Source: Leptolyngbya sp. FACHB-321
Lineage (GTDB): Bacteria > Cyanobacteriota > Cyanobacteriia > Leptolyngbyales > Leptolyngbyaceae
DNA length: 32,000 bases
Assembly: GCF_014695975.1 (NCBI RefSeq)
Contig: NZ_JACJPI010000082.1
Coordinates: forward strand, 56,568-88,567
Direction: 5' to 3'
The notes under the pieces are model-generated. The model was given only the letters and a program-made list of their open reading frames with translations, did not search any database and was not told the origin of the DNA. Numbering within the stretch: the first letter of the stretch is position 1; every line of letters begins with the position of its first letter. Positions 4,999-31,534 of this stretch are shown in pieces. A program made the position numbers and the translations under genes.

Positions 4999-5011
4999 TC
5001 CTAGCTTACTG

Positions 5012-10471: not shown

Positions 10472-10487
10472 GTGCTTCAGACCAGAG

Positions 10488-10737: not shown

Positions 10738-10775
10738 AATGGGGCTTAGAACTGCCCTTTCCCAACCAAACTGCT

Positions 10776-11210: not shown

Positions 11211-11309
11211 CTGGAGTCGCCCGTACAGGCACGGGTCAAGTCACCCCCCCTCACACGACAGGAATATCAGAATCGTCAAGCCCTGCTGACCAAGGTAAAA
11301 AACTTTTGG

Positions 11310-13091: not shown

Positions 13092-13302
13092 CTGAGCTAA
13101 TGTGCAAGACACGGCTCTGAGCGTCTTCGTCAACCGCAGACCAAGCGCTTTCCTTGATCGGCCACTGGTTGGCACAATTGCGCCGTAAGCAGCGCTCCTG
13201 CTTCTGAGCCTCGCTGCGATCGATGCTCTCAAACTCAACTTGGTTAAAGCTTTCCAGCTCATCTTGCACTTTTTGTCGTATGCCAGCTTCACGCCTGCTC
13301 AA
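13084..13302 (-). CDS. doubtful small ORF (72 aa), possibly a DUF29-like fragment
   Basis: TTG start, convergent with the NACHT gene and overlapping its stop by 8 nt. …QDELESFNQVEFESIDRSEAQKQERCLRR… weakly recalls the DUF29 …NLIEEIESLGRSEKR… motif. A decayed paralogous copy lies at 16441-16520. Confidence 0.25.
   Translation of the reverse strand: MSRREAGIRQKVQDELESFNQVEFESIDRSEAQKQERCLRRNCANQWPIKESAWSAVDEDAQSRVLHISSVS
13204..13281 (-). repeat. about 80-bp repeat, copy A (inverted relative to copy B)
   Basis: The reverse complement atacgacaaaaagtgcaagatgagctggaaagctttaaccaagttgagtttgagagcatcgatcgcagcgaggctcag is roughly four-fifths identical by eye to 16441-16520. Confidence 0.7.
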
Positions 13303-13394
13303 AGCGGGTCGTGTTCTTTCTCAAATCTGCTGTTTTGCGGAACCACTGACATTCTTGGAGTAGAAAGAAGCAGTCTCTACTTGGAGTACTGCTA

Positions 13395-13769
13395 ATGGAA
13401 CCGCTCTCATTCACTGCCGCCGCGATCGCAACCCTCGTTTTTAGTGAAACGTTCAAGGAAGTTGGCAAAACGTTAGGGAAAGGCACCCTGGAGACGGGTG
13501 GAAAACTCGCTACTTTGCTGTGGAAAAAGCGACCAGGGGCGGCCAAAGCGCTGCAAGCTGGGGAAGCAGCGCCGGAATATAAGGACGCGATCGTCGAAGT
13601 AGAAACCTTAGCTGTAAACGATGCCGAAATTCAGGAGGCAATCGCGGCAGTGGTGCAAGCCTTGCAAGCTCAGCCGCAGGGACAGCAGATCGTCAATTCC
13701 TTCGTGCAGAAAGCAGCGAATGTGTATAACGCTCCGGTGACAATCGAGAAGCAAGACATTAACTTTTGA
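13395..13769 (+). CDS. small helical Bell/HeLo-like protein (module 3), ends at an in-frame TGA
   Basis: MEPLSFTAAAIATLVFSETFKEVGKTLGKGTLE…, helical, with tail …QQIVNSFVQKAANVYNAPVTIEKQDINF. It is a paralogue of ORF 10776-11210. Confidence 0.72.
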   Translation: MEPLSFTAAAIATLVFSETFKEVGKTLGKGTLETGGKLATLLWKKRPGAAKALQAGEAAPEYKDAIVEVETLAVNDAEIQEAIAAVVQALQAQPQGQQIVNSFVQKAANVYNAPVTIEKQDINF

Positions 13770-13853
13770 CTGCCGTCGTCGGCTTCCGGCTCCGACCAAG
13801 TAACGCCGTTCTATGACATTCCCTATCGGTCGTCTGCAAACTTTGTCGGACGG

Positions 13854-16427: not shown

Positions 16428-16440
16428 GGCTGCGCTGATC

Positions 16441-16520
16441 ATACGATCAAAAAAGTGCAAGACGAGCTGAAAAGCCTGATTCAAATTGAGTTTGAGAGAA
16501 GCGATCAAAGCGAGGCTTAG
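16441..16520 (+). repeat. about 80-bp repeat, copy B (decayed)
   Basis: atacgatcaaaaaagtgcaagacgagctgaaaagcctgattcaaattgagtttgagagaagcgatcaaagcgaggcttag begins 14 nt after the NB-ARC-TPR stop. It has TAG where copy A reads CAG. Confidence 0.7.
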
Positions 16521-16935
16521 AATCAAGACTTTTGCAGGGTGAGCAACTAAACACAAAGAAAGTGAGCCTTAGCAGAAATGATTGCATTGACTTCATTTTG
16601 ATGAAACGGCTCACTTTTACACGCATCATTGCTATGAACTTGACAAGCGTATGAGGGTATCCATTTAGACTCAGTATTTGCTAGTTGATAGAGCGGCTGC
16701 TTTTACCCCTTCCACTTCAGAATAGGCGTTCAGAGCAGTTTTAGAACAATCTAATCGCTTGGAAAGTCTGGTATAAAAGTGTTACAACGTTTCAAGCTTT
16801 ACCAAAACTATTGTTCTATTATTTTAGAACAACTAATAGAATGTCTTAGTTAAATAAAGTGGCTAGAAGCCTTTATTAGCAAGCATTAAAAAGTCATATT
16901 TTTCGCAATCTTATCAATTACATAGCTCAAGGAGT

Positions 16936-18901
16936 TCACTTTGTCGTAGGAAGTAGGCTCTGCACCATCTCTCTGGTCTGATCATCTAAGAAGGCAATGT
17001 ACAAGCGTTTAGTCGCCCTAGTCATGAGAATGCGGTAGACATTGAGTAAGAACGGCACGATCGCCACATCATCGAGCTGAGAAAGTTGAGGATCAACATT
17101 GTCATAGTGAGGGTAGCCACCACGCTGGCCGGGTCTTGTCTGCGTGCGTAGTGGGTTGCCGACCCAACGCGCTTCACGCCAGAGAAGGTCACGTGACCAA
17201 AGTAAGCAGACGGTTGGCAGATCAAAACCTTGGGCCGTGTAGACAGAGCCAAAACTTTGTGCGCCCGAAGGGGCTGTAGCCCAAAACTCGCCTCTGGCAA
17301 GGCCCTTGGCCAGACGCCCAGGTTTTCCTTTCTTCGGCGCTTCCCAGGGATAGGCAATGACGTCTGGAATGATCACCTCGTCGACCAGAGAACCATCTGC
17401 GTGGGGTTTTTGGGCCCAGTCCCAACACCATCCTGTCAGCAGCCGCGACTGATTGGGGAACTGTGCCTCCCAGTCTTCGTGGATTTTTACCAAGTCAGCC
17501 GGGCTAGCAACCACCTCACACTCGAAGGCTCCTACATCGCCAAGTGGCTGCAGAGTCGGCTGGGGTGAAGCAAAGAGCTCATCAACCCAGTGCAGAAATT
17601 CGAGTGAGCCTGCGAGTCGGTGCTGCGCTTCTAATTGGTAATGGCATACCGTAGCGTGCTCTTGAGCAGCAGCTGTCTGAATGTCAGCAATCTGGTTGGC
17701 CTCTTTCGGTTGAATAATCTGCCTCTCGTCGATGAAAAAGATACTGACTTTGGCAGCTCTAATAATTTCGCGCACGATGGGCAGTGACGCATCTAGCGCC
17801 GCACGTGTCTTGTACTGTCGTTGACCAGAGGCCCAATCAATGGCAGCGATGCCATCCATTCTGTGAGCTTCATCGATCAAAACGACGTCACAGGCATTTT
17901 GAGGTCGATATCTAAAGCGATCAGTGTAGGAAATAAGAGGCTGAAGATGATTGCCCAACTCCTTTTGCACAGACGTCTTCATTGCAGCTGACTTGACGAC
18001 ATAGGTTGGACGTCGATTCTCTTCAAGGATTGCAGCCAAAGACTGCAGCGCAATGGCCGTCTTCCCCGATCCAGGTCCGCCTGAAACAACGATCACGGCT
18101 TTTGCTTAGTCTCTGACCGCACTGATGAGTGCGCGACGGATGCCATCGTAGACGAGGTACTGCTCGGGAATCAGTGGGAACTTGTCACGACCGTTGATGA
18201 CGGCCACTGCAAATTCGATAAATTGCCTGCTGGGTCGGATTGCACTGGAGACAAAACGGTCGTAAACCACTTGTCCATCGCCTCGTTTGAGCTCTCGGCT
18301 CAGTGTGCGCGCATAGCTCGATTTCAGGTGCGCCAATGGTCGGCGCTCTCTCCTGTAGCGACGAGTATTGGCCGCCTCGCAGGCTACTGATCGCAGGCTC
18401 AGGCAGACTAAACAGGACAGCGTAGGCACTACAGCTGAGAGCAGCGCGGTGATGACTGTGGCAAGACTCAACCCAATAACGCAAACGCTCCACAAAGAGA
18501 GCGGCTTGCAAGGATGGGTGAAGAATCTCGGTAATCCTAGAGCCATAGACATTGGCACGAACAAAGTCGGGTGAGTCTTCGACAACCTCAAAACTGCTCC
18601 ACTGCTTTAACTCTAGAACGATGAGGCGTTGTGTGCCAGCAGCATCAACGCCAAAGAGGACAACATCCGCGCGGCAGCGCGCGATTGGTTCAAGCAATTC
18701 TAAGACAATCATGGCCTCTGGATGGACATGCTTGACCAAACGCGCTATGTGCGGTGCGTTGGCACTCCAAGAGTATTGTTCCGACTTGCCAAACCCAAAC
18801 CCGGCCGTGCGCGCGCCCTCTTCCATCAAACGCTGCAAGCTGCCAGTCCTGACATCATTCAGAAAGGTGCTTACGGTCGCTGCATAAGCGCACTTGGTCA
18901 T
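16936..18901 (-). pseudogene. DUF2075-type (nuclease-like N-domain + P-loop helicase-like) gene, disrupted by a frameshift and an in-frame stop
   Basis: The N-terminal part (frame of 18185-18901) reads …RADVVLFGVD…LIVLELKQWS…HPSLQA…. Homology then continues in another frame (…RGDGQVVYDRFVSSAIRPSRQF…FPLIPEQYLVYD…) after a shift near 18310-18340. That frame reads …AVRD-TAA(18106-18108)-AKAV-IVVSGGPGSGKTAIAL…, straight into ORF 16936-18096 (…VVLIDEAHR…). A sequencing error cannot be excluded. Confidence 0.65.
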
Positions 18902-19111
18902 GGTCTTGCCTCAAGCAGTGAGTGTTTGACTGGGTTGGTTCTGTTTAAACAGTGCCCAGTCAGCAGAGAAACTCTCAAGGTTTTCATCAAGAGGGCGATC
19001 CTGCCGCAATCAGACCAGAAACAATGCCTTGATCTTCGTAGAGGATGTTAGACCGAAACCCTACTTTGAACAGCACTTTACTTTGAAATCTGGCGTTCCC
19101 ATAGCCAGCCA

Positions 19112-21655
19112 GTGCCCGTTGCCTGTTGGCCCAACTGGGTGCAGGGGCATCCTAACTGGAAGCCCAGTGGCCTAGAGGAGCATCATCACTTGGATTTTAT
19201 TGTCATTGACACAGAGGGCAGCCCCGCACTGCGTGAGCTGGCCGTGCTCGACAGCCAAGGGCAACTCCTCTACGAAGCCTTTGTAGCAGAGCATCCAGCC
19301 CATGCTAATAGCTACCGTCCCCTGAAACCGCTGCGAGCGATTGTGCAAGACATCACTCGTCTAGCACGGAACAAGTCGGTCGTCTGCCATTACGCCCAGC
19401 ATGATCTAGACGTGCTGCAGGGCAGTTTTCGCCAAGCTAATATGCCTTGGATCAGATTCAAGACTCTCTGTACCTGGGAACTGGCCAAGCAACACTTGCC
19501 GCCCTTTGAGAGTTACTCGTTAGCACACCTCAGCCAGTGTCTGCAGCTACAAGTCAACGGCAGGCGCTTCAACGCCGAGCAAGCGCATACCGCCCACTAC
19601 GATGCGGCCTTTACCCATCAGCTTTACTTAACCATCCTGGAGCACCAACAAAGGAGAGCCTTGCCCACGCCATCACCACACACACCCAATCCCTACAGCA
19701 GCAGCCGGGTGGATAACCCCTTTCAAGACCACCTGGACCTGCAGGCGGTGTATCAAGCTGAATTTGCCCTCCTGAAAGCAGCCTTAGGTGATGTCAAGGC
19801 TGACCCCAATCAGCAAAGCAAAGGCGCGGTCATACTGGGAGCTGCTGGCTCCGGTAAAACCCACCTGATCATGCGTCTGGCTAAAGAGCTGCTCCGCACT
19901 AATCGCCTGTTGTTTATCCGCCAACCCAACAATGCAACGGCGGTACTGCACCACACCTACTCACGCATCTTAGAGTCATTAGCGGAGCCCGTGGCCGGTA
20001 GTGATCGCACTCAATTGGAACTGCTCCTAGCCAACAGCTTCGTCAACATTCTCAGTTCACTGGAGCAAGTGACGGGGACACAGAAAGGGCGGGAAATTCT
20101 GGCCGCGTTTCAGGAGAATAGCTTGCAGCTTTACAGCCGCTCTGGCACGGAAGAGACGCAACGGCATCGGGCCCGGTGGGAGTATATTGAACGCCATATT
20201 ACGGAGTGGTGGGGTCGACATTACACCGCCGCTGGCGATGCCGTCACCATCCTCAGGGGCATCATCAAGTTTTGCAGCTACAGCGACCCCCACAAAAAAG
20301 ACCTGGTACGGCGCTGGCTCGCCGCTTCAGAACTGGAGACGGCGGAAGCAGAGAGTATTGGGTTAGAGAACTGGCAAGAGGACATGAGCCGGGAAGAGTT
20401 TGCTCTGGCTGCCATCACCGTCTTTGGTCGCTTATCCACCCTCGATGAACCACTCATCATCGTGTTCGATCAGCTCGAGAGCTTGGGACTGCCACACAAC
20501 ACCCTGATCCTGGAGAGCTTTGGTGCAGCCGTGAAAGAGTTGTTGACCCATGTGCCCCACAGCCTCATCATCCTGAACCTGTTTCCAGAGCGGTGGGAGC
20601 AGTTCCAAAGCTGCTTTGATGGCTCGGTCGTCGATCGCGTGTCCGATTACATTGTCCCGCTGGAGCGTCCCAGTGCCGCCCAGCTCGAAGCACTGCTCAG
20701 CTTGAGAGCCCAAGCGGTAGGACTGGAGTGGCAGACCCTCTTCACGCCCTCGGCACGCGCCAGCATCCTGAGTCAGCCCTCCATCCGCGCGGTGCTGAAG
20801 CAGGCTGGTGCTTACTTCCACGCGCGCGTCCACAACACCCCGCTACCCCGACCGACGGACGCAGCCACACCGCTGGCCGAGCGCTCGGTGACGGCACGCC
20901 TGCACCAACTGGAGCAAGTCATGGCTCAGATGGTGAGTCTCCTGCAGCCCTACTGGAGCAGCCTATCGCCAAGCGACCTACCGTCTAGCCGTGCAGAGGT
21001 GGCACCCCTCGGTCTGAGCCCGCCGGACGCCGAGTCCTTACCACCTGACCTAGACACTACCAGCGCCCCAGTGTCAGTCGCAGCTGTAGTCGCGGACTAT
21101 TTGAGCCAAAAGCGGCTGGCACTCGCGGCAGACTACACGCGACCCACGATCATTCAGGATGCCAATGAAATTGGTAAACTAGCGGCGATCGCTGCGGCGT
21201 TTCAGTTACATCAAGCCTTAGAGTTCGAGCCCTTGCGTGTCGGCAGAAGCAAGCTACCCGAGCACTTACGGATTCGAACCGCGCAACAGGAGTTTGTCAT
21301 TGGCTTCCTGAACGCCAGTGGTACGACTTTCACAGCGAGAATCAAAAATTTTAACCAGCTTGTGGCGCTGCATCCAGAGATAAAGTTTACCTTGCTCCGG
21401 GATGGGCGCGAACCCAAGCTTACGGGTGCTGTCGGTTTGGCAGAGATTGAAAAGCTGCAGCATAGTCCAAACGGTCAGTTTCAGGTGATGACACCAGACG
21501 ACCGCATCAGTTTTGAACTCATCTACAACTGTATTATCGATATTCAAGAACAGGACTTAGAGGTGGCGCTCGCGCTGGCGCTGCCGCTCCTGCTAGACTC
21601 CTTGAGTGACTACTGGCTCATGGCGGCCTTGCGTGGTCAGCCCTTGCACGCGTGA
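19112..21655 (+). CDS. DEDDh (DnaQ-like) 3'-5' exonuclease fused to a P-loop NTPase and a large uncharacterised C-terminal region
   Basis: ExoI DFIVIDTEG; ExoII VVCHYAQHDLDVL; ExoIII AHTAHYDAAF (H-x4-D). Walker A GAAGSGKT (19838-19861); a Walker B-like LIIVFDQLE lies about 200 aa later. About 390 aa follow with no motif I recognise. The start is uncertain (GTG 19112 or TTG 19190). Confidence 0.85.
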   Translation: MPVACWPNWVQGHPNWKPSGLEEHHHLDFIVIDTEGSPALRELAVLDSQGQLLYEAFVAEHPAHANSYRPLKPLRAIVQDITRLARNKSVVCHYAQHDLDVLQGSFRQANMPWIRFKTLCTWELAKQHLPPFESYSLAHLSQCLQLQVNGRRFNAEQAHTAHYDAAFTHQLYLTILEHQQRRALPTPSPHTPNPYSSSRVDNPFQDHLDLQAVYQAEFALLKAALGDVKADPNQQSKGAVILGAAGSGKTHLIMRLAKELLRTNRLLFIRQPNNATAVLHHTYSRILESLAEPVAGSDRTQLELLLANSFVNILSSLEQVTGTQKGREILAAFQENSLQLYSRSGTEETQRHRARWEYIERHITEWWGRHYTAAGDAVTILRGIIKFCSYSDPHKKDLVRRWLAASELETAEAESIGLENWQEDMSREEFALAAITVFGRLSTLDEPLIIVFDQLESLGLPHNTLILESFGAAVKELLTHVPHSLIILNLFPERWEQFQSCFDGSVVDRVSDYIVPLERPSAAQLEALLSLRAQAVGLEWQTLFTPSARASILSQPSIRAVLKQAGAYFHARVHNTPLPRPTDAATPLAERSVTARLHQLEQVMAQMVSLLQPYWSSLSPSDLPSSRAEVAPLGLSPPDAESLPPDLDTTSAPVSVAAVVADYLSQKRLALAADYTRPTIIQDANEIGKLAAIAAAFQLHQALEFEPLRVGRSKLPEHLRIRTAQQEFVIGFLNASGTTFTARIKNFNQLVALHPEIKFTLLRDGREPKLTGAVGLAEIEKLQHSPNGQFQVMTPDDRISFELIYNCIIDIQEQDLEVALALALPLLLDSLSDYWLMAALRGQPLHA

Positions 21656-21891
21656 ATACACACCGGCGGTCTACACTCTTGAGCACTACCCGCTCGGCAG
21701 CAACCTGTCAAACTACAACCGCTATAGCCTTGTTTGACCCTGGTCTGGTAGTGGCGCTCCCGCTTGCTGACTTAAGCCACCCAGCCTCAAGTAAGGTACC
21801 GGCGGCAGGGTAAGCCCAGCACTTGACTGGCTGATGTGCCCGCCGGTGTGTTAGCCGCTAGAATTTGTGTACTACTGACACACACGCGACC

Positions 21892-22308
21892 ATGCGCTTT
21901 CAGGACTTACAACAGCAACACCAACAGCTGACCGCTGCGATTGTGCAGCTGCAGTCTGTTAGCGAGTCGAGTGCATCCTTGTCACCCGCCGCGTCTGACT
22001 ACACCCCAGCGGCGATCGCCCATGGTCAACAGCTCCAAGCCTTAGAGCAAGAGCGGCAGCAGGTTGCTGCGGCTTTAGTGCACATCACCACTTTGGCCCG
22101 GCAGCATGGGCTCCTCCTACCGCCACAGAAGTCCCATGACTGTGCGGTGCAGCACTCCAGCGACTCGAATGAGTGGTACACCCTCCCTTACTGGGTAGAC
22201 CAAGCCCGCGAGTTAATGGGCGGGATTGACCTTGACCCTGCCTCGAGTGTCGAAGCCCAGTCCTGGATTCAAGCTCAAACCTATTACACGCCAGCTGTTG
22301 TACATTAA
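21892..22308 (+). pseudogene. 5' fragment of a phage-type DNA N6-adenine methyltransferase gene, truncated by the transposon end
   Basis: …SNEWYTLPYWVDQARELMGGIDLDPASSVEAQSWIQAQTYYT (22165-22290) matches the N-terminal signature of Dam-type phage methyltransferases as I recall it (EWYTP…G.IDLDPAS…YYT). The NPPY catalytic part is missing. The ORF runs into TGTACA at 22299 and stops at 22306-22308. Confidence 0.5.
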
Positions 22309-22503
22309 AGAATTAAACGACACTTTAAAGAATTAGCTTCCCTTTCTCCCAGAGAGACTCAGAAGGCGTATAATCCCTACTCTACAGCAGTTTCACGCCT
22401 CTCAACGCCTTTTATTTTCTTTAAGCAATTCTTAAATCAAAATACTTCCTTTTCCTTTCAGAGCTTGCTAAAGTGCTTTAAAGCAAATTGCTTCCCTTTT
22501 AGC
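22299..22503 (+). repeat. putative TnsB-binding repeats of the transposon end
   Basis: tgtACATTAAAGAATTAAAC (22299-), cACTTTAAAGAATTAGCTTCCCTTT (22321-), inverted ttctttaagcaattcttaaat (22418-), and tgCTTTAAAGCAAATTGCTTCCCTTT (22474-). Confidence 0.5.
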
Positions 22504-22518: not shown

Positions 22519-24564
22519 ATGACGGCTCAACCAGAGGAAGATGAGAAAATGCCTGAGTCGTCAGGTTTAGAGGCTCAGAAGGAAACACAAGAGCACTCTC
22601 CCCTGCTATTGAACGACATATCACCAGAACTGCAACGGAAGATTGATCTGATTGATGCGGTGACTCAGGCTTCTGATAAGAAAGCGCGCCGGGAGGCGAT
22701 CGATAGGGCAGCCAAGGAGCTAGGAAGAACACCCCGCAGAATTCGGACGCTGGTGCAGCGTGTCGAGAGCGGTGAAGGACCAGCCGTGCTGGCAGTGGGT
22801 CGCAAAGACAAGGGGCAGTTTCGCATCCCAGAGCATTGGTTCAAGTTTGTTATTGCTACCTACGAATGGGGGCAGAAACAAGGTTCCCGGATGAATAAGA
22901 ATCAGGTTCACAAGAAGCTGAAAACATTAGCAACCCAAGGGGAGAGGCTACGCGATAAGAACTATAGAAAGCAATTCATGGGTCATCGCAAAGTACGTGA
23001 GGACTTAGTTGCAGGCAACTGCCCGTCCCATGTCACTGTCTCTAAAGTCATTGACTTTTACCTTAAGGGGAAGAACAAGAACGTTCGTCACCCGGGCTCT
23101 CCGGCTGAAGGACAAATCATCCAGACGACTGAAGGCATTCTGGAGCTTGGATACAGTAATCAAATCTGGCAGTGTGACCATACCAAGCTGGATATTCTAC
23201 TGGTCGATGAGAAGGGTGACACGATATTAGAACTTGACGATGCGGGCGAAGAGGTTTGGGGACGCCCTTACCTGACGCTGATCGCAGACAGCTACTCAGG
23301 GTGTATCGTGGGGTTTTACCTTGGGTTAGAACCCGCAGGCTCCCATGAAGTGGGTCTTGCCCTACGCCATGCAATGCTGCCCAAACAGTACGGACCAGAG
23401 TACGAACTGGAGACTAAGGAGATTGCTTTTGGTAAACCAGAGTACTGGCTGACCGATCGCGCTAAGGAGTTCAAATCAAAGCATCTTCAACTGATCTCGA
23501 TGCAGGCAAGTTTTAAGCGACGATTACGAGCTTTTCCTCAAGCGGGTGGCTTGATCGAAACAATCTTTGACACCTTGAACAAAGAATTGCTATCACTACT
23601 GCCAGGTTACACAGGATCTAATGTTAAGGAACGCCCTAAAGATGCAGAAAAGCACGCTTGCATCACGCTCAAAGAACTTGAGAAGCGTTTAGTAAGATAC
23701 TTCTTCGATAATTACAACTGGAGCAAATACCCTAGAGTCGAACACCAAAAGCGCCATGAACGTTGGCGTTCTATGCTGCTAGCAGAACCAGAGGTTTTAG
23801 ACGAGCGGAGTCTGGATGTCTGCTTGATGAAGGTTGCTCACCGTAAGGTTGAAAAGTACGGCAGCGTTGAGTTTGCGCGGCTGATCTATCAGGGTGACTG
23901 TTTGATTCCCTATCAAGGAGAGGAAATTTCTCTTCGGTATGACGAACGGAACATCACTGCGCTTTTGGCTTACACTCGCCCCGTTGACGGACAGCCGGGT
24001 CAGTATATTGGTGCTGCTTATGCTCGTGATTTACAGCAAGACCAGATTTCGCTGGAGGAACTGCGCTGGTACAAGCGGGAGCTCTGTAAGCGAGGTGTTG
24101 AGGTTAATCACGATTCGATCGTTGCTGAACGGTTGGGACTGTATGAATTCATTGATGAGAAGCGTCAGTCCAAGCGGCAGCGTCGCAAGCAGGCGAACCA
24201 GGAGCATCAGCAGCAGACGAACACTTCCAAAGTGGTTGAACTTTTCCCTCAGAATCAGTCGGTTGAGACGCATCCAGACCCTCAACCCGGTTCTGAAGCT
24301 TTTGCCAGCCAGTCCCAAGCTGGCAATACAACGAACTCTACTTCGCTATCGCAGTCGCTTCCTGAGCCGTCGTCCTTGGTTAACGTTCCAGATAGTACGG
24401 TTGAAAACCAGGCAGGTGCTGAAGCTATCTCCGAGTCAATTGTTGATCAGGTCTCAAGGTCTGACGAAGCCTCCGATGAATCTTCTTTATCTAATGCTGT
24501 AGACTTTTCCTATGAACCAGTCGTTGCTTACGATTGGGATCAACTTCTTGCGGATAACTGGTAA
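22519..24564 (+). CDS. tnsB: Tn7-like transposase TnsB (DDE/rve, Mu-type)
   Basis: GAAGGAG lies upstream of ATG 22519 (the listed TTG 22465 is less likely). The DDE triad is IWQCDHTKLD, YWLTDRAKEF, and 34 aa later GGLIETIF. The C-terminal tail …VAYDWDQLLADNW resembles TnsC-interaction hooks. Confidence 0.9.
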   Translation: MTAQPEEDEKMPESSGLEAQKETQEHSPLLLNDISPELQRKIDLIDAVTQASDKKARREAIDRAAKELGRTPRRIRTLVQRVESGEGPAVLAVGRKDKGQFRIPEHWFKFVIATYEWGQKQGSRMNKNQVHKKLKTLATQGERLRDKNYRKQFMGHRKVREDLVAGNCPSHVTVSKVIDFYLKGKNKNVRHPGSPAEGQIIQTTEGILELGYSNQIWQCDHTKLDILLVDEKGDTILELDDAGEEVWGRPYLTLIADSYSGCIVGFYLGLEPAGSHEVGLALRHAMLPKQYGPEYELETKEIAFGKPEYWLTDRAKEFKSKHLQLISMQASFKRRLRAFPQAGGLIETIFDTLNKELLSLLPGYTGSNVKERPKDAEKHACITLKELEKRLVRYFFDNYNWSKYPRVEHQKRHERWRSMLLAEPEVLDERSLDVCLMKVAHRKVEKYGSVEFARLIYQGDCLIPYQGEEISLRYDERNITALLAYTRPVDGQPGQYIGAAYARDLQQDQISLEELRWYKRELCKRGVEVNHDSIVAERLGLYEFIDEKRQSKRQRRKQANQEHQQQTNTSKVVELFPQNQSVETHPDPQPGSEAFASQSQAGNTTNSTSLSQSLPEPSSLVNVPDSTVENQAGAEAISESIVDQVSRSDEASDESSLSNAVDFSYEPVVAYDWDQLLADNW

Positions 24565-24570
24565 CTGGAA

Positions 24571-25506
24571 ATGGCTCAACCTCACCCCATCCCACAACCA
24601 AATGAGCGATCGCAACCAGTCCCTAGCCAATACCCAGCCAACCTCGCGCCTCCCCAGCCTATTGAGGCAGTGCCCCAGCGATCGCCCGAGTTACAGGTTG
24701 AAGTTGACCGCATTCGTGACAGTGAAACTTACACAGCCGTTGCTCGTGACCAACTCCTGTTCGACTGGCTGTCTTCGCAGCGAGAATCACGTGCCAGTGG
24801 CTTTGTCTTTGGAGTGAATTTTGGAGATTTGAGGAAATCTTGCCAATTTTATCAGATGCAATACGTGCGGAAACGGGGAAACCTATTCCTGACTCCCATG
24901 CCAGTGCTCTACACTGACGTTGAACAGTACGGTTCCCCGACTGACCTTTTTATTAGCATCACTCAGGCAGCAGGGAACCCCTTCGCAGGCATGGGATCGT
25001 TACGGGATTTGAGAAAACAAGCGATCGGTACGCTGAACAAATTTCAAACGAGAACTCTGATTATTGGTTATGCAGAAGCTTTGTCTGTTGAGGCGCTCAA
25101 AGAACTTGTAAAAATGAGGCGAGATCTAAAAATTTCGATTATTCTTGCTGGTTCTATGTCCTTATTTGAGTTCTTTGACCAACTTGATAAGCAGCGTGGT
25201 CAAAAATACAAGGAGATTAGGAACGCCTTTCTTGATTGCTGCCAATATCAGCGGTTCGAGCAGAACCAAATAGAGACAATGCTCGAAAGATGGGAACTTC
25301 AAGTCTTAGGCTCCTGGTCTAAGCAGCTTAATTTGAAGGCGATTCCTGGCGTTCCTAACTTCCTCTATACCCGTTGTGGAGGGCAGGCTGAACCTTTGTA
25401 TGAGATGCTACGCCAAATAGCAATTCAAGCGTTAGACGAACCGCTACAAATCAGCACAGCCACCCTCACAAAGCTATTCATATCGAAGCGAGTAGCAGGC
25501 ACATAA
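24571..25506 (+). CDS. tnsC: TnsC/TniB-like AAA+ protein with degenerate Walker A and Walker B motifs
   Basis: It sits between tnsB and tniQ. …LFDWLSSQRESRASGFVFGVNFGDLRKSC…MPVLYTDVEQYGSPTDLF…TRTLIIGYAEAL…ISIILAGS… aligns with ShCAST TnsC as I remember it. However, there is no GxxxxGK[ST] and no hhhhDE anywhere in the 311 aa. Confidence 0.8.
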   Translation: MAQPHPIPQPNERSQPVPSQYPANLAPPQPIEAVPQRSPELQVEVDRIRDSETYTAVARDQLLFDWLSSQRESRASGFVFGVNFGDLRKSCQFYQMQYVRKRGNLFLTPMPVLYTDVEQYGSPTDLFISITQAAGNPFAGMGSLRDLRKQAIGTLNKFQTRTLIIGYAEALSVEALKELVKMRRDLKISIILAGSMSLFEFFDQLDKQRGQKYKEIRNAFLDCCQYQRFEQNQIETMLERWELQVLGSWSKQLNLKAIPGVPNFLYTRCGGQAEPLYEMLRQIAIQALDEPLQISTATLTKLFISKRVAGT

Positions 25507-25567: not shown

Positions 25568-26086
25568 ATGTCTAACGAGACAGACGAAGGATTTGAGTTA
25601 CCACGCTGGTGTCCAGACCCCTTGGAAGGCGAGAGTATCGCCAGCTATCTCGTGCGGTTTCGATCGCAAGAAGTTAGTGCTATGTCTACCATCGGTAGTC
25701 TAAGCAGAGAGCTACGACTGGGTACGGCTTTAGGGCGCTGGGAAAAGTTTCGCTTCAATCCCTTTCCCAGCGTTCAAGAAATTGAGCTATTTTGTAACCG
25801 TCTTGGTCTGGAGGTGGAAAAACTAATTCCAACCTTTCCATCTAAAGAACAAAAAATGAAGCTGGAACCAATTCGGTTGTGCGCTTCTTGCTATGCAGAT
25901 GCCCCTTATCACAGATTAGAATGGCAGTTTAAAGCAATAGCAGGCTGTCATAGACACCAAGTACGTTTGCTTCACAAATGTCCATCTTGTGAGAGACTAT
26001 TCTCGATTCCAGAATTAATTACTGAAGAGAAATGCAAGTGTGGGATGTATTTTCGGAGAATGTCCAGACACCAGAAGCGTTTCTAA
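25568..26086 (+). CDS. tniQ: short TniQ (172 aa), CAST V-K-type
   Basis: …PLEGESIASYLVRFRSQ…GRWEKFRFNPFPSVQEIE…EPIRLCASCYADAPYHRLEWQFKAIAGCHRHQVRLLHKCPSCERLF…. It has a zinc-ribbon Cys/His pattern and lacks the long TnsD-like C-terminal DNA-binding part. Confidence 0.88.
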   Translation: MSNETDEGFELPRWCPDPLEGESIASYLVRFRSQEVSAMSTIGSLSRELRLGTALGRWEKFRFNPFPSVQEIELFCNRLGLEVEKLIPTFPSKEQKMKLEPIRLCASCYADAPYHRLEWQFKAIAGCHRHQVRLLHKCPSCERLFSIPELITEEKCKCGMYFRRMSRHQKRF

Positions 26087-26123: not shown

Positions 26124-26330
26124 TGTACTAAAAGCTGAATGTTATTACACCTAATTGAGTAGCAGTTCAAAGCTAAATTCACTTCAAGGTGCGATCGTCA
26201 TAAGCTCAAACTGTTAATGAAATGCTCAGGATGTGAGCAGCCATTTCCAATTCCTTCATTTTGGCTAGAAGGAAAATTCCAAAACAAAAAATGCGGTATG
26301 CAAGAATGGCGAAGCACCAGAAGTCCGTAC
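26124..26330 (+). pseudogene. decayed 3' fragment of a second tniQ
   Basis: In-frame reading gives CTKS*MLLHLIE*QFKAKFTSRCDRHKLKLLMKCSGCEQPFPIPSFWLEGKFQNKKCGMQEW…, with stops TGA 26136 and TAG 26160 (where TniQ has Trp). It parallels …CYA…YHRLEWQFKAIAGCHRHQVRLLHKCPSCERLFSIPEL… and is closer still to ShCAST CDRHQLKILAKCPNCQAPFKMPALWEDG (from memory). Confidence 0.6.
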
Positions 26331-26467: not shown

Positions 26468-26650
26468 TGTACAGTGACTTTTTATGTGTTGTGGAGACAC
26501 ATTAGTGTCGTTAAAGCAGCAAGCCAAACCAAGCTAGCTTTAGGTGAAAAAGCCAGCTTGGCAATCCTGATGACTTAAGGCGGTCACTGAGCAAACTCTC
26601 TCTGTTGCAGGAATTGCAGAGAGTTTGCTCAGTGACACAAATTTGTCTCG
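26468..26650 (+). mobile_element. second Tn7-like terminal sequence, ShCAST-like (TGTACA + GTGAC…TGTC-type repeats), in the same orientation as the 22299 end
   Basis: TGTACA 26468-26473. S1 GTGACTTTTTATGTGTTGT (26474-26492); S2 GGAGACACATTAGTGTCGTT (26493-26512, dyad GACAC-ATTA-GTGTC); S3 GTGACACAAATTTGTCTCG (26632-26650). Compare the ShCAST end TGTACAGTGACAAATTATCTGTCGT as I remember it. Confidence 0.5.
26583..26636 (+). other. 19-bp perfect inverted repeat (long hairpin or operator), 16-nt loop
   Basis: gtcactgagcaaactctct (26583-26601) pairs with agagagtttgctcagtgac (26618-26636). It ends 14 nt before ATG 26651 and has no T tract. Confidence 0.7.
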
Positions 26651-27067
26651 ATGTCATTTATTTTGGTACTGGGCGCGGAAGCCCAGCAGTTTTTTACCGC
26701 TCAGGCACAGCAAGGGTCAGTTAGTCTCGTCAGCACAGATGTCGTGGCACCAGAGGAAGCCGAACAACCTTTGAGTGAGGAAGCAGTGATGCCAGGTGGG
26801 TTTGGACGAGCGCAACCGCAACGCCAAGGTAGTAAGACTGCTTTGCAGGAAATCCGGTCACTAAGTGTTGTGTCTCAACAGCCAGTGCAGGAACCTGATG
26901 TTGATCGGACAATGCAGGCAGAAGTGGCAGCGTTCTTTGCCCAGTACCAGCAAGAGTATCCAGAAGAATTGGCTCTCGCGTGGTCGGCTGGTGTTTATAA
27001 CCCGTTGGCAACGGTCGATTTACTAGCAGTGGGTGCTCGCTTTCTGGAGCCAGAAGAGGAAGACTAG
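26651..27067 (+). CDS. hypothetical acidic protein
   Basis: A 138-aa ORF with no motif I recognise. It is Gln/Glu-rich, and its coding status is only moderately supported. Confidence 0.45.
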   Translation: MSFILVLGAEAQQFFTAQAQQGSVSLVSTDVVAPEEAEQPLSEEAVMPGGFGRAQPQRQGSKTALQEIRSLSVVSQQPVQEPDVDRTMQAEVAAFFAQYQQEYPEELALAWSAGVYNPLATVDLLAVGARFLEPEEED

Positions 27068-27208
27068 CTGGCTTTAGCACGTATGGTGAGCTGGCTCTTA
27101 GTCGAGGATGAACTGGATGCCATTTTATTTCACAGCGCCACCACCAGACTTTGCGTTGGAACAAGCTGACTGGTATGTGCGACCAGATTTGACGACGTTT
27201 CTACGTTT

Positions 27209-27424
27209 TTGGAGTCACCCGTGTTGTTGCGTGCGGTGGTGCAGCAGTATCCCATGACTGAAGCGAGCCTTCGAGCGGCGATCGACCAGAAAGTTACGGC
27301 GTTAGGTTGGCAACCAGGGCAACTGGAGCAGTTCATCCAGGAGTGCTTTGAGCAGCCAGAAAAGGCTTTGAAGACAAGCGACTGGTCACTCTTGCTGTTT
27401 GAGTTGCAGTTTCAGGCAGACTGA
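27209..27424 (+). CDS. hypothetical protein; possibly the 3' part of a frameshifted 102-aa gene starting at ATG 27117
   Basis: The listed ORF starts at TTG 27209, inside a T5 run (27206-27210). The frame from ATG 27117 encodes MPFYFTAPPPDFALEQADWYVRPDLTTFLRF and would join it with a -1 shift in the T run. Confidence 0.45.
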   Translation: MESPVLLRAVVQQYPMTEASLRAAIDQKVTALGWQPGQLEQFIQECFEQPEKALKTSDWSLLLFELQFQAD

Positions 27425-27439
27425 GACGGCACTCACATA

Positions 27440-27475
27440 GGCAGGCAATCCTCTTTTGAAATCAAAAGGTCTGCC
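27440..27475 (+). terminator. weak candidate terminator hairpin
   Basis: GGCAG…CTCTTTTGaaaTCAAAAGg…CTGCC lies 16 nt after stop 27422-27424. It has no clear T tract. Confidence 0.25.
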
Positions 27476-27598
27476 GCCCGTATAGCTCTTTAGGGCTGAG
27501 TCGGGATTATTTAGCACCTAATCCAAGTTGGTTGAAGTTTATGGCTTGATGGGCACACTGAGGCAGATGCTAATCAAACTTTACCTAGATAAAATCTC

Positions 27599-30217
27599 AT
27601 GATTGTGAGTGCCTCTTCTTCTAGTTCCTCATCTACAGCAGTTGATATTTTATCTAAACTGCTGAACCAGCCGCTTCAAGAGCAGGCAGTGAAGCCGTTA
27701 GCAGTTTATCTGGGTGCACTAGCTGCTGTACTAGTTGGTGTTGCCCATGCTGATAGTCAGGTTACCGAAGAAGAGAAGCAACGACTGGGGAAGATTTTAA
27801 CCCAGTTTATGCCGTCGGGCAGTGCGTTGCACAACGTGGCGCGATCGCTGGTGCAAGGTGTGCATGCTAGCAAAATTTATGCGAAGCCAGCAGAATTAGC
27901 AACGCTAACGACTTTATTGACTGAATCCGAAAAGCTGTTGCTGATTATGTTGGGCTACGAGATGGCAACTGCCGACAGCGACCTAAACCCTAAAGAACAG
28001 AAATATCTCCGCATTATTGCTCAGCATTTACAGCTGAAGGAGGAATGGATCGTGGCGCTGGAGGCAGCTTTGGTACACCAGCAAATGAGCGCTGCTCTAA
28101 GTGAAGTACGCTATTTGCTTGATCCAGCTAGATTTCAAGCGCTTGATCCAGTGTTTGCGAAAGCTGCCAACCAGATGCTGCTACGACTGCCCGAAAGTGC
28201 TAAGTCTCATCAGACAGGCGTGCAAGTCGGTTACGAAACCTTAGCAAGTTTTCAAGCCCAAAGGCAACAGTTAGATCGTTTTTGCGGTGAGCTTTGGCAA
28301 ACGATGTCAGAGTGCAACGATCGCGCTCCATTACCTCAGCATTTAACAACTGGTCTGCAAAAGATCTCTCAAAGGCTACAATCCCAAAAGTTTCGTGTCG
28401 CTGTAGTGGGCGAATTTAGTCAAGGAAAATCGACGTTGCTGAACGCTCTGTTAGGAGAAGAAATTCAGCCGACGCGAGTGATTCCGTGCAGTGGCAGCAT
28501 TACCGTACTGCGGTACGGTGAGCAAAAGCGAGTGCTTTGTCGCTATCGCAATGGGCAAGAAGAAAGCATTCCTTTGGGTGATTACCAGGCTAGAGCGTCC
28601 ATTCCTGACGATGTCGCTCTGGGCAATCGAGAAGCGGCACTCACTTCTGATGTTTTAGAAATTGTGTATGAGCATCCTGGCTTGGCGCTCTGTCGGCATG
28701 GGGTTGAGTTGATTGATTCACCTGGCTTAAACGAGCATCCTGAGCGTACCCGCATCACCAACCAGCTGTTAGAAAACGTGGATGCGGTCATCTTTTTAGT
28801 AAATGCTTCACGTCCCATGACTCAGGGGGAACGGGAGCTACTACACAGCTTAAGGTTGAAACTAAATGGAGAGCAGGTCGATCAACCTGCTAATAATCTT
28901 TTTGTGTTGGTGAATTTTATGGATTTGCTGCGGCGTGAGCATGATCGCCAGCAGGTGCGGCAGTTAATTGAAAATTGCGTTTTCGGCGACAGCCCAATCC
29001 TTGAAAACTCAAAGCAACTCCACTTTATTTCCGCTCAGGCGGCTCTAGAGGCAATCACCGATGGCGATGACCAAAACGATTATTTGCAGACTTTTCGAAG
29101 TTTTACGCAGGTCTTGGAAACATTTCTTACACGAGAGCGAGGTGCACTCGTTAATCAACGCTGCCAAGCTGATCTGCATCGTGTGATACAGGCACTAACG
29201 TTGCAACTGAACCAAGCAGAAGAAACTATGGTTGGCAAAGTTGCCTTCTCAAAGACTGCTCAGCAGGACATTCTAAGCAAAATTGGTGAAGCTAGCGGCT
29301 ACCTAGCTAATTTGCAAACCCTCATAGAAGAGACCAGTGATCAGAAGCGGGCTGCGGTGCAGCGCCTTAAAATCAACCAGTACTTGGAGAACTGTATTGG
29401 TCAGAAAGCTGCCTCCTGGTGCTCTGAGCAGCGTGAGAAAAGCAAGGTGATTACAGAATTTGGTGATAAGTTCCAATCGGCTTTGTCAGATGCCATTGGC
29501 GAATGGACGCAAAACACTGTCATTCAAGAAACGCTCACAGCCACGCTCAAAACAATTGACTCCAACATCCACAGTAAAATTTACCAGTTCCAAAAGAGTG
29601 CAGAAGCGATCGATCAGGGAACAGGTTCGCAACTTGCTGCCCAATTGAATTTAAGCCTCAATCAAGTGGCTCCCCAGTTTAAGTTCAACGCAGCAGTTGG
29701 CTCAGACAATTGGGATGCTGCCTGGGATATTGGCATTGGGAGTATTAGTGGGTTAGGTGGAGGTGGCTTACTGGCTGGCGGTGCGGCGCTTGCCGTCAGT
29801 AGTGTTGCCTTCTTTCCGCTAGTGCTAACAGGTGGCGCAATTATCGGTATCGCTGCTGCCGGGGCAGCTTTGGGCACAGCCATTGGGGGTGTCATCGGCT
29901 TTTTCACACCGCCTGACCAAGAAGCGATCAGGCAAGCAGTGGTTAAAGAAGGGTTCCAGCAGTTTTATGCCCAGGATGGCACCGGGCAACTAATGCGTTC
30001 GCTCGATGTCTTAGTCAAAAGTTTGTTCGATCAAAGACTGGTAACCATCCAAACTGTCACTCGCCAATATATGGCTCTACTCAATGCGTTGTTAATTGAT
30101 TCACAAACCGCACACACCTTGACCTTGGCTGAAACTGCCGCAGAACAGCAGTGGTATCAAGAACAGCACAGTAAGTTAGTCACTTTTCAGTCTCGGCTCG
30201 ATGCTTTGTTGGCTTAA
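27599..30217 (+). CDS. TerB-like domain fused to a dynamin-family GTPase with a C-terminal Gly/Ala-rich membrane hairpin
   Basis: TerB-like halves: …VGVAHADSQVTEEEKQRLGKIL… and …EMATADSDLNPKEQKYLRIIAQHL…. GTPase G1 FRVAVVGEFSQGKSTLLNALLG (28409-), G3 ELIDSPGLNEH, then VLVNFMD. Hydrophobic region GIGSISGLGGGGLLAGGAALAVSSVAFFPLVLTGGAIIGIAAAGAALGTAIGGVIGFF (about 29725-29900). Confidence 0.85.
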   Translation: MIVSASSSSSSSTAVDILSKLLNQPLQEQAVKPLAVYLGALAAVLVGVAHADSQVTEEEKQRLGKILTQFMPSGSALHNVARSLVQGVHASKIYAKPAELATLTTLLTESEKLLLIMLGYEMATADSDLNPKEQKYLRIIAQHLQLKEEWIVALEAALVHQQMSAALSEVRYLLDPARFQALDPVFAKAANQMLLRLPESAKSHQTGVQVGYETLASFQAQRQQLDRFCGELWQTMSECNDRAPLPQHLTTGLQKISQRLQSQKFRVAVVGEFSQGKSTLLNALLGEEIQPTRVIPCSGSITVLRYGEQKRVLCRYRNGQEESIPLGDYQARASIPDDVALGNREAALTSDVLEIVYEHPGLALCRHGVELIDSPGLNEHPERTRITNQLLENVDAVIFLVNASRPMTQGERELLHSLRLKLNGEQVDQPANNLFVLVNFMDLLRREHDRQQVRQLIENCVFGDSPILENSKQLHFISAQAALEAITDGDDQNDYLQTFRSFTQVLETFLTRERGALVNQRCQADLHRVIQALTLQLNQAEETMVGKVAFSKTAQQDILSKIGEASGYLANLQTLIEETSDQKRAAVQRLKINQYLENCIGQKAASWCSEQREKSKVITEFGDKFQSALSDAIGEWTQNTVIQETLTATLKTIDSNIHSKIYQFQKSAEAIDQGTGSQLAAQLNLSLNQVAPQFKFNAAVGSDNWDAAWDIGIGSISGLGGGGLLAGGAALAVSSVAFFPLVLTGGAIIGIAAAGAALGTAIGGVIGFFTPPDQEAIRQAVVKEGFQQFYAQDGTGQLMRSLDVLVKSLFDQRLVTIQTVTRQYMALLNALLIDSQTAHTLTLAETAAEQQWYQEQHSKLVTFQSRLDALLA

Positions 30218-30265
30218 ACCTTACAGTTGTTCAGTTTTTGCCTAACACTTAACCACTACACGAGT

Positions 30266-31534
30266 ATGCTTTTTCAATTTTCCACAGAGATTCAACGAAG
30301 GCTTGCTACAGGTGAGCTTGTTCAGGTGCTTTCTAAAAACGGTGTGCCTTTAAGTCTGGTACGAGACGCGGTAACAGGTCAATTCAAAGGACAAGCGATC
30401 GGCGTTACAGGACTAAACCCATTCACAGCCATGCCTGGTTTGATCATCGATGGTTGGAATGCTTATCAAGGCGGTAAAATCCTCGATCAAGGTCGTCAGA
30501 CCCTTCAGGCAGTGAATGCCCTCGCGCAAGCTGTCAATCTTCTGCAAGCAACCACTGCGGTGATTGGTGTTGGCGTTGCAGCAACGGCTGCGCTTGCCGC
30601 CGTGAATCTCTATCAGACACTAAAACTCCGTCAAGAAGTTGCATCCCTGCGCTTAGAGGTCAAAGATGGCTTTATTGAACTGAAGCAGGCATTACGTGCT
30701 CAAGGGCTAGAGCTTATTGCTCACATTGACCGTGTCGCTGAAGACGTTGAATTTCGCCATCATCGCACGATTCTTGCACAAGCTTATGGGCTATTCAATC
30801 AAGCGCTCGTGCGTCTGCAAGCAGCGATCACAGTGCAAGATTTAGCGCTTCGTCATGCTGACATCACCTCAGTTCGTGACATGCTGTTTCAAGCTTTAGC
30901 AGATTACGATAACCCTCAATTACTAAAAAATATTAATGCAGCCGCTTATATTCGTCGCCGCGAGTGCGTGTGGGCAATTCAACAGGCAATTGCCTTCACC
31001 TATCAACTACAAGGTCAACCAAGCAGTGTCAGCCATCAATTGCAGACGCTCTGTACTACTATTCGCAATGATTCCCTTGCCGCTGTTGACCAGATCAGCT
31101 CTCAAGCTGAACTTGATTTTCTCTTTCCTGAAATTGTCCGCATCCATGATCACGACTTGCAAGTCCTCAACCTCTGGCAAACACAAAGTGACTGGGTCGC
31201 AACGCTACAGCCAGATGAAAAAAGTCTTTTGCAGCACTCGGAACTCAACCCAATTGATCTAAAAATGCCTAGCACAGACTCTTGGTTAGACGTGCCTTCA
31301 GAGCAGACTCTCTACGAAGAACTTCAGCTAAAGTCAAACAATGTGACTCTGTGCAATCAGCTTCGGTTGATGATGTCTCCAAATATGCGCTTAGAGTATG
31401 CCTCTACGATTAGTCAACAAGCACAAAGCAGTGGGCTAAAAGCTTTAACTATGGATAATTTGGAGGCGGCTTCAGCTTATACGATCGCCAATCTTCATCA
31501 CTACTTCCAAATTGAGGAAGGGGCATTGAAATAG
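30266..31534 (+). CDS. hypothetical single-pass membrane / helical protein, likely co-transcribed with the dynamin gene
   Basis: ATG 30266 lies 48 nt after the dynamin stop (the listed TTG 30227 is less likely). MLFQFSTEIQRRLATGELVQVLSKNGVPLSLVRDAVTGQFKGQAIG…, TM LQATTAVIGVGVAATAALAAVNLY, then about 300 aa that look helical. Confidence 0.75.
   Translation: MLFQFSTEIQRRLATGELVQVLSKNGVPLSLVRDAVTGQFKGQAIGVTGLNPFTAMPGLIIDGWNAYQGGKILDQGRQTLQAVNALAQAVNLLQATTAVIGVGVAATAALAAVNLYQTLKLRQEVASLRLEVKDGFIELKQALRAQGLELIAHIDRVAEDVEFRHHRTILAQAYGLFNQALVRLQAAITVQDLALRHADITSVRDMLFQALADYDNPQLLKNINAAAYIRRRECVWAIQQAIAFTYQLQGQPSSVSHQLQTLCTTIRNDSLAAVDQISSQAELDFLFPEIVRIHDHDLQVLNLWQTQSDWVATLQPDEKSLLQHSELNPIDLKMPSTDSWLDVPSEQTLYEELQLKSNNVTLCNQLRLMMSPNMRLEYASTISQQAQSSGLKALTMDNLEAASAYTIANLHHYFQIEEGALK

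Follow-up and report, generated by a model that had tools for sequence, protein, structure and literature searches.

A TnsC lacking the Walker motifs in a Tn7-like element of Leptolyngbya sp. FACHB-321: a putative nucleotide-independent adaptor within a conserved cyanobacterial lineage

Introduction

A Tn7-like element in Leptolyngbya sp. FACHB-321, located in a 32,000-nucleotide stretch of contig NZ_JACJPI010000082.1 (the whole of which is hereafter called the window), carries a tnsC gene with an intact reading frame from which, by alignment, all four classical elements of the AAA+ nucleotide site (Walker A, Walker B, sensor-1 and the arginine finger) are gone. Drawing on sequence, predicted fold and comparative genomics, we infer that the protein is probably (at roughly 0.6) a functional pseudo-ATPase that serves as a nucleotide-independent adaptor. 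In Tn7, Mu and the CRISPR-guided transposons, TnsC is regarded as the ATP-driven switch by which recognition of a target leads to activation of the transposase. A sequence-only reading of the same DNA had noticed the missing Walker motifs and proposed that the element was crippled but not yet decayed, trans-complemented, or dependent on a TnsC that works without nucleotide. The last of these is the best supported by the evidence given here.

The nucleotide-binding site of the window TnsC

The tnsC gene (24571..25506, plus strand) encodes a 311-aa protein with a predicted AAA+ fold in an uninterrupted reading frame, and its product is a full-length homolog of the TnsC of ShCAST, a CRISPR-associated transposon (CAST). 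In a phmmer search against all PDB chains ShCAST TnsC (ShTnsC; 7m99/8rdu) was the sole match, with residues 39-293 of the window protein pairing with ShTnsC residues 19-261 (E=2.3e-12), and the alignment is ungapped across both Walker motifs. At Walker A, VFGVNFGDLRKSC is aligned to ShTnsC VVGESRTGKTVAC, which places GVNFGDLR where ShTnsC has the P-loop GESRTGKT (G65, K66 and T67 become D86, L87 and R88). At Walker B, TLIIGYAEAL is aligned to MLIIDEADRL, and IIGYAE takes the place of IIDEAD (D144 becomes G166 and E145 becomes Y167). The sensor-1 residue D174 is replaced by M196 and the arginine finger R189 by A219; the roles of E145, D174 and R189 are those described for ShTnsC, along with that of Q185 (bioRxiv 10.1101/2021.07.06.451292). 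A regular-expression scan for GxxxxGK[ST], “GK” and hhhDE gave zero matches across the entire 311 residues. The Pfam profiles AAA_22 and TniB both match above their cut-offs, beginning at profile positions 21 and 67 respectively, in each case past the part that covers the P-loop. NCBIfam matched zero families for the window TnsB, TnsC or TniQ.

A shifted P-loop was considered and is ruled out, since the ungapped alignment is anchored by the conserved residues C91 and Y94 in a register common to 29 homologs, and no GK occurs anywhere in the protein. The earlier claim that both Walker motifs are lost from an intact 311-aa frame is borne out by the alignment to ShTnsC and by the pattern scan, and it even understated the loss, which extends to sensor-1 and the arginine finger. 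Of the checks proposed with it, alignment and profile comparison agree on this point (phmmer and Pfam).

Selection and predicted fold

Ratios of nonsynonymous to synonymous substitution (dN/dS) were estimated by the Nei-Gojobori method between the window genes and two sets of orthologs, those of the 91%-identical locus L007 and those of the 77%-identical Leptolyngbya ohadii locus (L001). The values are 0.18-0.23 for tnsC, 0.14-0.30 for tnsB and 0.12-0.18 for tniQ, and in the comparison of the window with L007 they span 0.12-0.30 at dS 0.07-0.35. The tnsC gene is therefore under purifying selection on a par with tnsB and tniQ. Within the sub-lineage to which the window protein belongs, the former P-loop is also better conserved than the rest, with a pairwise identity of 61% vs 51% for the whole protein.

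An AlphaFold2 (AF2) model built from a 19-sequence alignment has a mean predicted local distance difference test score (pLDDT) of 85.4 and a predicted TM-score (pTM) of 0.79. The β1-loop-helix arrangement is in place in this model and the N-terminal 38 residues are disordered. Foldseek ranks the ShTnsC filament protomers 7m99/7plh first (TM-score normalized to the target, TMt, 0.84; 25% identity), with other TnsCs and MuB next. The model thus predicts that the AAA+ α/β core and the helical lid are kept. The protein is far more diverged from its ShCAST counterpart than its partners are (~0.20 bits per aligned residue for TnsC, 0.63 for TnsB and 0.84 for TniQ), which fits a release from the constraint of the nucleotide site followed by re-adaptation.

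A lineage of Walker-less TnsC proteins

A word-indexed search returned five relatives with 41-95% identity to the window TnsC, and all five show the same motif losses. A profile search of 1.84 billion cluster representatives gave 88 proteins at E<=1e-3, and the full-length ones were aligned with ShTnsC; with the members from a second profile search and two plasmid-borne proteins, they make up a set of 29 full-length lineage proteins that are 27-91% identical to the window TnsC. The position of the Walker A lysine (K66) is occupied by Leu in 18 of these, Ile in five, Val in five and Thr in one. Neither the Walker B glutamate (E145) nor the arginine finger (R189) is found in any of them (0/29 for both), and the sensor-1 aspartate (D174) is present in 1/29 and lost in 28/29. 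The canonical V-K TnsCs recovered by the same search keep all four residues (K, E, D and R). A search of genome contigs for related loci gave only two, one in a Halomicronema metagenome-assembled genome that was already in the set and the other a 1.9-kb Kovacikia fragment (95% identity).

The 29 Walker-less TnsCs group together in a neighbor-joining tree, adjoining the canonical V-K TnsCs. Their sister group in this tree retains GK[ST] and has Asn or His for the catalytic Glu and no arginine finger, which suggests that the motifs were lost stepwise among V-K TnsCs. The sub-lineage of the window protein is the most derived, with the Walker B Asp and the P-loop Gly replaced as well. Its former P-loop reads DL[RQ]K[AS]C, while that of a second group, here called “DD,” reads SAKGSG[VIL]SDSC; in the DD group the Walker B Asp is retained and a second Asp stands at the Glu position.

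On these comparisons the loss of the Walker motifs is a trait of the lineage and not a quirk of a single element, as the sequence-only reading had treated it: Lys, Glu and arginine finger are missing from 29 relatives. Its suggestion of a crippled gene caught before decay does not hold either, and simple decay of tnsC is ruled out by the lineage-wide loss and by purifying selection as strong as that acting on tnsB and tniQ. The survey of homologs and the dN/dS test that it had called for thus yield a clade with the same loss (n=29) and a constrained gene (dN/dS 0.18-0.23), not a defect unique to this copy.

Related elements and their mobility

Are elements with such a TnsC mobile? The TGTACA... 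left terminus adjoins unrelated flanks in the window, L001 and L007, and the insertion site of the window element differs from those of its 91%- and 77%-identical relatives. The cargo 3′ of tniQ is different in each element, comprising a TerB-dynamin system in the window, a cytochrome P450 and a nitroreductase in L001, type I restriction-modification in L004, CBASS and GmrSD in L007, and BREX-like and further defense genes in the others.

The clearest case comes from Anabaena variabilis ATCC 29413 (Anabaena/Trichormus), in which a 4,005-bp segment occurs on both plasmid A and plasmid C with 100% identity. Its only genes encode TnsB, a Walker-less TnsC and a reverse-oriented 180-aa protein; TniQ and Cas12k are both absent from this 4-kb element. 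Its TnsC (WP_011316413.1) is 42% identical to that of the window and has the same losses, reading AVSCADLRKAC and LIIGNAHYL at the two Walker positions. Both copies have inverted terminal repeats of the type seen at the left end of the window element (LE1), and each is flanked by a distinct 5-bp duplication (TCAAC and CCAGG). Identical copies with such repeats and differing duplications are the signature of recent Tn7-family transposition, and indicate that the 4-kb element transposed recently. On plasmids A and C the sole V-K-type TnsC is the Walker-less one.

More broadly, the Walker-less tnsC is strictly linked to tnsB in 13 distinct elements, none of which has a second TnsC within 10 kb. 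The order tnsB-tnsC-tniQ is syntenic in 12 related elements, the A. variabilis element being without tniQ. In one related element (L014/L015) tnsB is interrupted by an IS66 element.

Two minor observations concern these loci. Just beyond the right end at both A. variabilis insertion sites lie N-terminal paralogs of the 180-aa reverse-strand protein with 44-55% identity (protein and paralog at 21022-21564 and 22436-22681 in L018, and at 4984-5526 and 5876-6034 in L019, for plasmids A and C), which hints at insertion beside related genes or beside what is left of earlier copies. In L008 (3340-3700), the JGI assembly of the 91%-identical relative, a ~75-bp tandem duplication in tniQ breaks the reading frame; the ENA assembly of that element (L007) is without it, and the duplication is either an assembly artifact or real heterogeneity.

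Relation to Cas12k and type V-K CASTs

Three members of the Walker-less lineage are linked to Cas12k. In Filamentous cyanobacterium CCT1 cas12k is adjacent (E=6e-103 vs ShCas12k). In Gloeothece verrucosa PCC 7822, plasmid Cy782202 (NC_014534.1; L020 12745-19574) carries a 6.8-kb V-K CAST with a Walker-less TnsC (WP_013335054.1), near-perfect 44-bp inverted ends of the same type as in the window lineage, a two-repeat CRISPR array with a further truncated repeat, and a cas12k gene annotated as two overlapping coding sequences (possibly a frameshift). This element has no obvious 5-bp target duplication and for that reason is left out of the evidence for mobility. The same plasmid also encodes a canonical V-K TnsC at positions 13125-13901 of the record. 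In the third, the metagenomic locus L022, cas12k lies ~8 kb 3′ of tniQ, behind the cargo.

The window element has the core set of a V-K CAST, with V-K-type TnsB and TnsC and a short TniQ present and TnsA absent, and its TnsC clusters with the Cas12k-linked Walker-less proteins. No cas12k was detected in the window by tblastn with a Cas12k of the lineage, nor any V-K CRISPR repeat (...TTGAAAG), which the same search did find in L020 as a positive control; the window ends 5.9 kb past tniQ. As the element runs off the window, and cas12k is ~8 kb away in L022, the missing cas12k, array and right end are not evidence that the element lacks them. Rfam families gave zero matches in the window. There is likewise no tRNA in the window, LE1 sits in a protein-coding open reading frame (ORF) and the relatives occupy unrelated sites, all of which speaks against a homing attachment site.

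Some further features stand beside these. In L001 a sequence resembling a V-K CRISPR repeat (7595-7633, minus strand; GGTTCA...ATTATTGAAAG) is found ~90-130 bp outside the L. ohadii left end, and may be a chance occurrence or the relic of a neighboring element. In the DD sub-lineage a tyrosine recombinase gene lies 5′ of tnsB (L016 5737-6750, L021 793-1683 and L022 4358-5248), and conserved small ORFs of 103, 202, 53 and ~238 aa precede tnsB in L021, L022 and L023. V-K CASTs are not known to encode a recombinase for cointegrate resolution.

Organization of the window element

The left end LE1 (22299..22500, plus strand) opens with the terminal TGTACATTAAAGAATTAAACGACAC; behind it, at 22303-22334, 22419-22430 and 22472-22495, come CTTTAAAG(A/C)AATT-type repeats (also of CTTTAAAGAATT type), which are putative binding sites for TnsB. 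The same terminus is found 5′ of tnsB in L001, L007, L012, L018/L019 and L020. In the window it interrupts the protein-coding ORF 21865-22308.

The genes tnsB, tnsC and tniQ form a contiguous plus-strand module. The DDE transposase gene tnsB (22519..24564, plus strand) is of ShCAST type and encodes 681 aa from ATG 22519, as in its orthologs; the frame is open from TTG 22465, and ATG 22519 is the probable start. By phmmer the protein matches ShTnsB (7svw; E=9.5e-102) with the D/D/E positions kept (WQCDHT, TDRAKEF and GGLIETIF), and Pfam Mu-transpos_C is recognized. A 172-aa TniQ of the short V-K type is encoded at 25568..26086 (plus strand; Pfam TniQ; ShTniQ E=1.4e-36 by phmmer). The sequence-only reading was correct on both partners, in describing the catalytic triad of TnsB as retained and tniQ as intact. 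It had also assigned a C-terminal hook to TnsB. The lineage does share a C-terminal motif, (D/N)WxQxxxxxW, which reads YDWDQLLADNW in the window; a search of the tail against the PDB gave zero matches, so its equivalence to the ShTnsB hook is suggested by position and conservation only. No TnsA-like ORF occurs between LE1 and tnsB or downstream in the window.

Beyond tniQ the element bears traces of an older history. A 3′ remnant of a second tniQ (26148..26321, plus strand) encodes a zinc-finger C-terminus with 45% identity to TniQ residues 115-167 (tblastn), within a segment conserved between the window element and L007. An internal ShCAST-like transposon end (26468..26520, plus strand; “TGTACAGTGACTTTTTATGTGTTGTGGAGACACATTAGTGTCGT”, reading TGTACAGTGAC...GTGTCGT) points the same way as LE1 and is conserved in both L007 and L008; the window holds no partner for it. 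It may have been left by an older element, nested or in tandem, or may be a TnsB site in the interior of the present one. A perfect 19-nt inverted repeat, or hairpin (26583..26636), follows near the end of the region shared with L007, which extends a few tens of bases past it before the cargo diverges. Its counterpart in L007 (4342-4397) has arms of 19-21 nt, and the two loops are reverse complements of each other, as would result from an inversion of the stretch that the arms enclose.

The presumed cargo (26651..31534, plus strand) consists of a 138-aa ORF, a 71-aa ORF, a gene for an 872-aa TerB-dynamin-like GTPase (27599-30217, plus strand; Pfam Dynamin_N and TerB, with weak PADLOC matches to LeoA/LeoBC, i.e., Eleos-like) and one for a 435-aa partner protein that has no family match (30227-31534, plus strand). 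The last two are possible defense cargo. Only the left end of the element falls in the window. Searches for the LE1 terminus with <=3 mismatches, for the internal repeat with <=4, for inverted repeats and, loosely, for TGTACA with TTTAA found no right end up to 32000, nor one in L001, L004 or L007; the element leaves the window before any right end.

A pseudo-ATPase adaptor and its alternatives

How might a TnsC with no nucleotide site work? In the reading favored here, the protein would still bind target DNA and oligomerize, relying solely on contacts with other protein molecules and with DNA. A conserved hydrophobic side chain in place of the Lys (L/I/V) would plug the former phosphate pocket, and the Asp found at the Gly preceding the Lys position in the window's sub-lineage would be part of this altered pocket. 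TnsC would bridge TniQ, and Cas12k where present, to TnsB by way of the conserved C-terminal tail of TnsB, whose (D/N)WxQxxxxxW motif may act as the handle. Steps that consume ATP in ShCAST and Tn7, such as TnsB-driven filament trimming and TnsC-based target immunity, would be absent or replaced. Whether the whole lineage, bona fide Cas12k CASTs included, captures targets and activates the transposase free of ATP, with constitutive assembly in place of a AAA+ switch that is considered universal for Tn7/Mu-type target selection and immunity and would then be dispensable, seems to us evenly balanced.

Several points weigh against the adaptor reading. The lack of ATP binding is deduced from sequence, and a nucleotide-free mode would need compensating changes. 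The lost Lys is directly followed by R88 and K89, a pair that the window's sub-lineage conserves and that could, in principle, make contact with a ligand. The neighbor-joining tree is a crude guide to the history of the lineage. A canonical TnsC may be encoded elsewhere in the host genome, both kinds being carried by the G. verrucosa PCC 7822 plasmid. Finally, the window element is incomplete, with neither the right end nor a target duplication in the window, which makes it no more than a candidate for an active element.

This last point leads to the first alternative, that the family is functional and the window copy is an immobile or non-autonomous relic, either rearranged or without a usable right end. 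Searches of the 9.7 kb from LE1 to the window end turned up neither a right end nor a target duplication, and neither cas12k nor a CRISPR array, the tniQ remnant and the foreign-type end inside the element attest to past rearrangement, and the IS66-disrupted tnsB of L014/L015 shows that decayed copies exist. However, tnsB, tnsC, tniQ and LE1 are all intact in the window, the dN/dS values against L007 are those of constrained genes, and the insertion site is unlike those of the closest relatives. The internal remnant is present in L007 too and hence predates the split of the two elements, so it is not recent damage, and with cas12k of relatives up to 8 kb past tniQ the right part may lie outside the window. 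Overall, a relic seems unlikely.

Somewhat less likely still is a rewired site, in which TnsC would use a nucleotide or phosphate ligand in a non-canonical way, R88/K89 or a Lys/Arg at P-loop positions 3-4 standing in for the lost Lys. There are precedents for a relocated catalytic lysine among other enzymes, for example the WNK kinases, and the former P-loop is conserved within each sub-lineage in the forms given above; the DD group, moreover, keeps the Walker B Asp and has Asp for Glu. Against this, no basic residue occurs at a consistent position across the lineage, the Lys position is hydrophobic in 28/29 proteins, and the Mg-binding Asp, sensor-1 and the trans-acting arginine finger have been lost as well. 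The Asp that replaces the Gly of “GK” in the window's sub-lineage should repel phosphate.

Least probable of the three is a changed job, with the Walker-less TnsC acting as a regulator, for example an inhibitor or decoy that caps or blocks assembly, while a canonical TnsC is supplied in trans. Catalytically dead paralogs often turn into regulators, and the G. verrucosa plasmid does carry a V-K TnsC of each kind. The Walker-less gene nevertheless occupies the canonical slot between tnsB and tniQ as the only tnsC of its element, and TnsB with its C-terminal tail co-varies with the Walker-less lineage. The recently duplicated A. variabilis element encodes nothing beyond TnsB, this TnsC and one unrelated 180-aa protein, and neither of its plasmids has another V-K-type TnsC. 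The trans-complementation raised in the sequence-only reading survives only as this rival; it does not explain why the gene is conserved, why it is strictly linked to tnsB in 13 elements or why no second TnsC lies within 10 kb.

Comparison with known systems

The closest solved homolog of the window TnsC, by sequence and by predicted structure, is ShTnsC (7m99/7plh). The window element resembles ShCAST in its gene order tnsB-tnsC-tniQ, the lack of tnsA, its close TnsB and TniQ homologs and a left end that starts with TGTACA. It differs in TnsC, where L, R, G, Y, M and A replace K66/T67, D144/E145, D174 and R189, and whose 38-residue disordered N-terminal extension is rich in Pro and Gln, and in its end repeats, which are of TTTAAAGAATTA type, whereas the ShCAST repeats have the consensus GTGACNNATTANNTGTCGT. 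The distance at which ShCAST inserts is set by ATP-dependent TnsC filamentation, which also drives insertion at off-target sites. When Walker B is mutated, transposition is abolished or strongly impaired in type V-K, I-F3 and I-D systems as well as in an archaeal element, whereas Tn7 becomes hyperactive. ShTnsC filaments require ATP binding, and mutation of key residues for ATP binding or hydrolysis substantially reduces or abolishes transposition (bioRxiv 10.1101/2021.07.06.451292).

That some TnsCs depart from this scheme has already been noted. In a single sentence, without data, list or mechanism, a review mentions that several V-K CAST TnsCs are without canonical Walker motifs, some lacking the Walker B Glu and some a typical Walker A, for which ATP binding itself is doubtful (Hsieh and Peters, 2024, Annu Rev Biochem, section 2.5; PMC11406308). 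This is the same phenomenon, and the survey presented here recovers both grades, as a KN.Y group and the lineage with no Lys. The window protein belongs here, being a V-K-type TnsC whose Walker A is atypical and whose catalytic Glu is gone, and is an extreme member in which both acidic residues of Walker B and the P-loop Gly are replaced too. The expectation that a nucleotide-independent TnsC would be new was therefore overstated, although our literature search found no paper, beyond that mention, that lists, analyzes or tests Walker-less TnsCs. What is added here is this extreme member, the coordinated loss of four motifs, with sensor-1 and the arginine finger among them, the evidence for purifying selection, and the recently duplicated 4-kb relative that has neither Cas12k nor TniQ.

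A precedent for the mobility of Cas12k-less relatives is the RNA-independent “BCQ” pathway of ShCAST, in which TnsB, TnsC and TniQ transpose without Cas12k at sites set by the binding of TnsC to DNA (George et al., PMC10370016). What drives that pathway is the filaments that TnsC builds, in dependence on ATP, along AT-rich DNA (PMC10370016), whereas the ATP site of ShTnsC is absent from the window protein. Tn5469 and Tn5541 are compact cyanobacterial Tn7-family elements which, as summarized in PMC9881144 and PMC11406308, carry at most one TniQ and little cargo, if any (Kahn and Schaefer, 1995; Schaefer and Kahn, 1998), insert without a dedicated attachment site and belong to the TnsA-TnsB fusion branch. 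The insertion of the window element into an ORF and the A. variabilis 4-kb element recall them; the elements described here differ in having a V-K-type TnsB and no TnsA. 

Outside transposition, an analogy for how such a protein may work is offered by the clamp-loader subunits δ and δ′, which have kept the AAA+ fold and a degenerate P-loop, do not use nucleotide and have a structural or adaptor role. They work in hetero-oligomers with active ATPases, whereas the putative pseudo-ATPase of the window is the only AAA+ protein of its element.

A conserved Walker-less lineage with at least one recently mobile member makes the need for ATPase activity in TnsC directly testable, and small natural systems are at hand in the A. 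variabilis 4-kb tnsB and tnsC element, the 6.8-kb G. verrucosa CAST and the CCT1 CAST. If such systems work without ATP, they could offer simpler and perhaps more specific tools for genome insertion, and would reveal how target immunity and filament trimming are bypassed. If the reading holds for CASTs, natural ATP-free versions might avoid the runaway TnsC filamentation behind the off-target insertions of ShCAST. For the window alone the value is modest: one more member of a group already noted, and a well-defined experimental lead, but not a new kind of system.

The left flank of the element

The region to the left of the element (5808-21655) forms an island in which genes for STAND-type NTPases and for enzymes acting on nucleic acids abound. 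It encodes an nSTAND1-WD40 protein (5808-9050), a NACHT protein (11310-13091), an NB-ARC-TPR protein (13854-16427), a Schlafen-like helicase on the minus strand (16936-18096), whose N-terminus may have become detached as the 238-aa ORF that precedes it, and a DEDDh exonuclease fused to an AAA_16 ATPase (19112-21655). The ORF cut by LE1 (21865-22308) ends ...EWYTLPYWVDQARELMGGIDLDPASS... and is putatively Dam-like, in that this sequence resembles the N-terminus of phage-type Dam methyltransferases. It has zero Pfam or PADLOC matches, and a motif search for the remainder of an NPPY-type methyltransferase found none anywhere in the window. Genes for nSTAND1 proteins also flank the related elements in L001 and L004.

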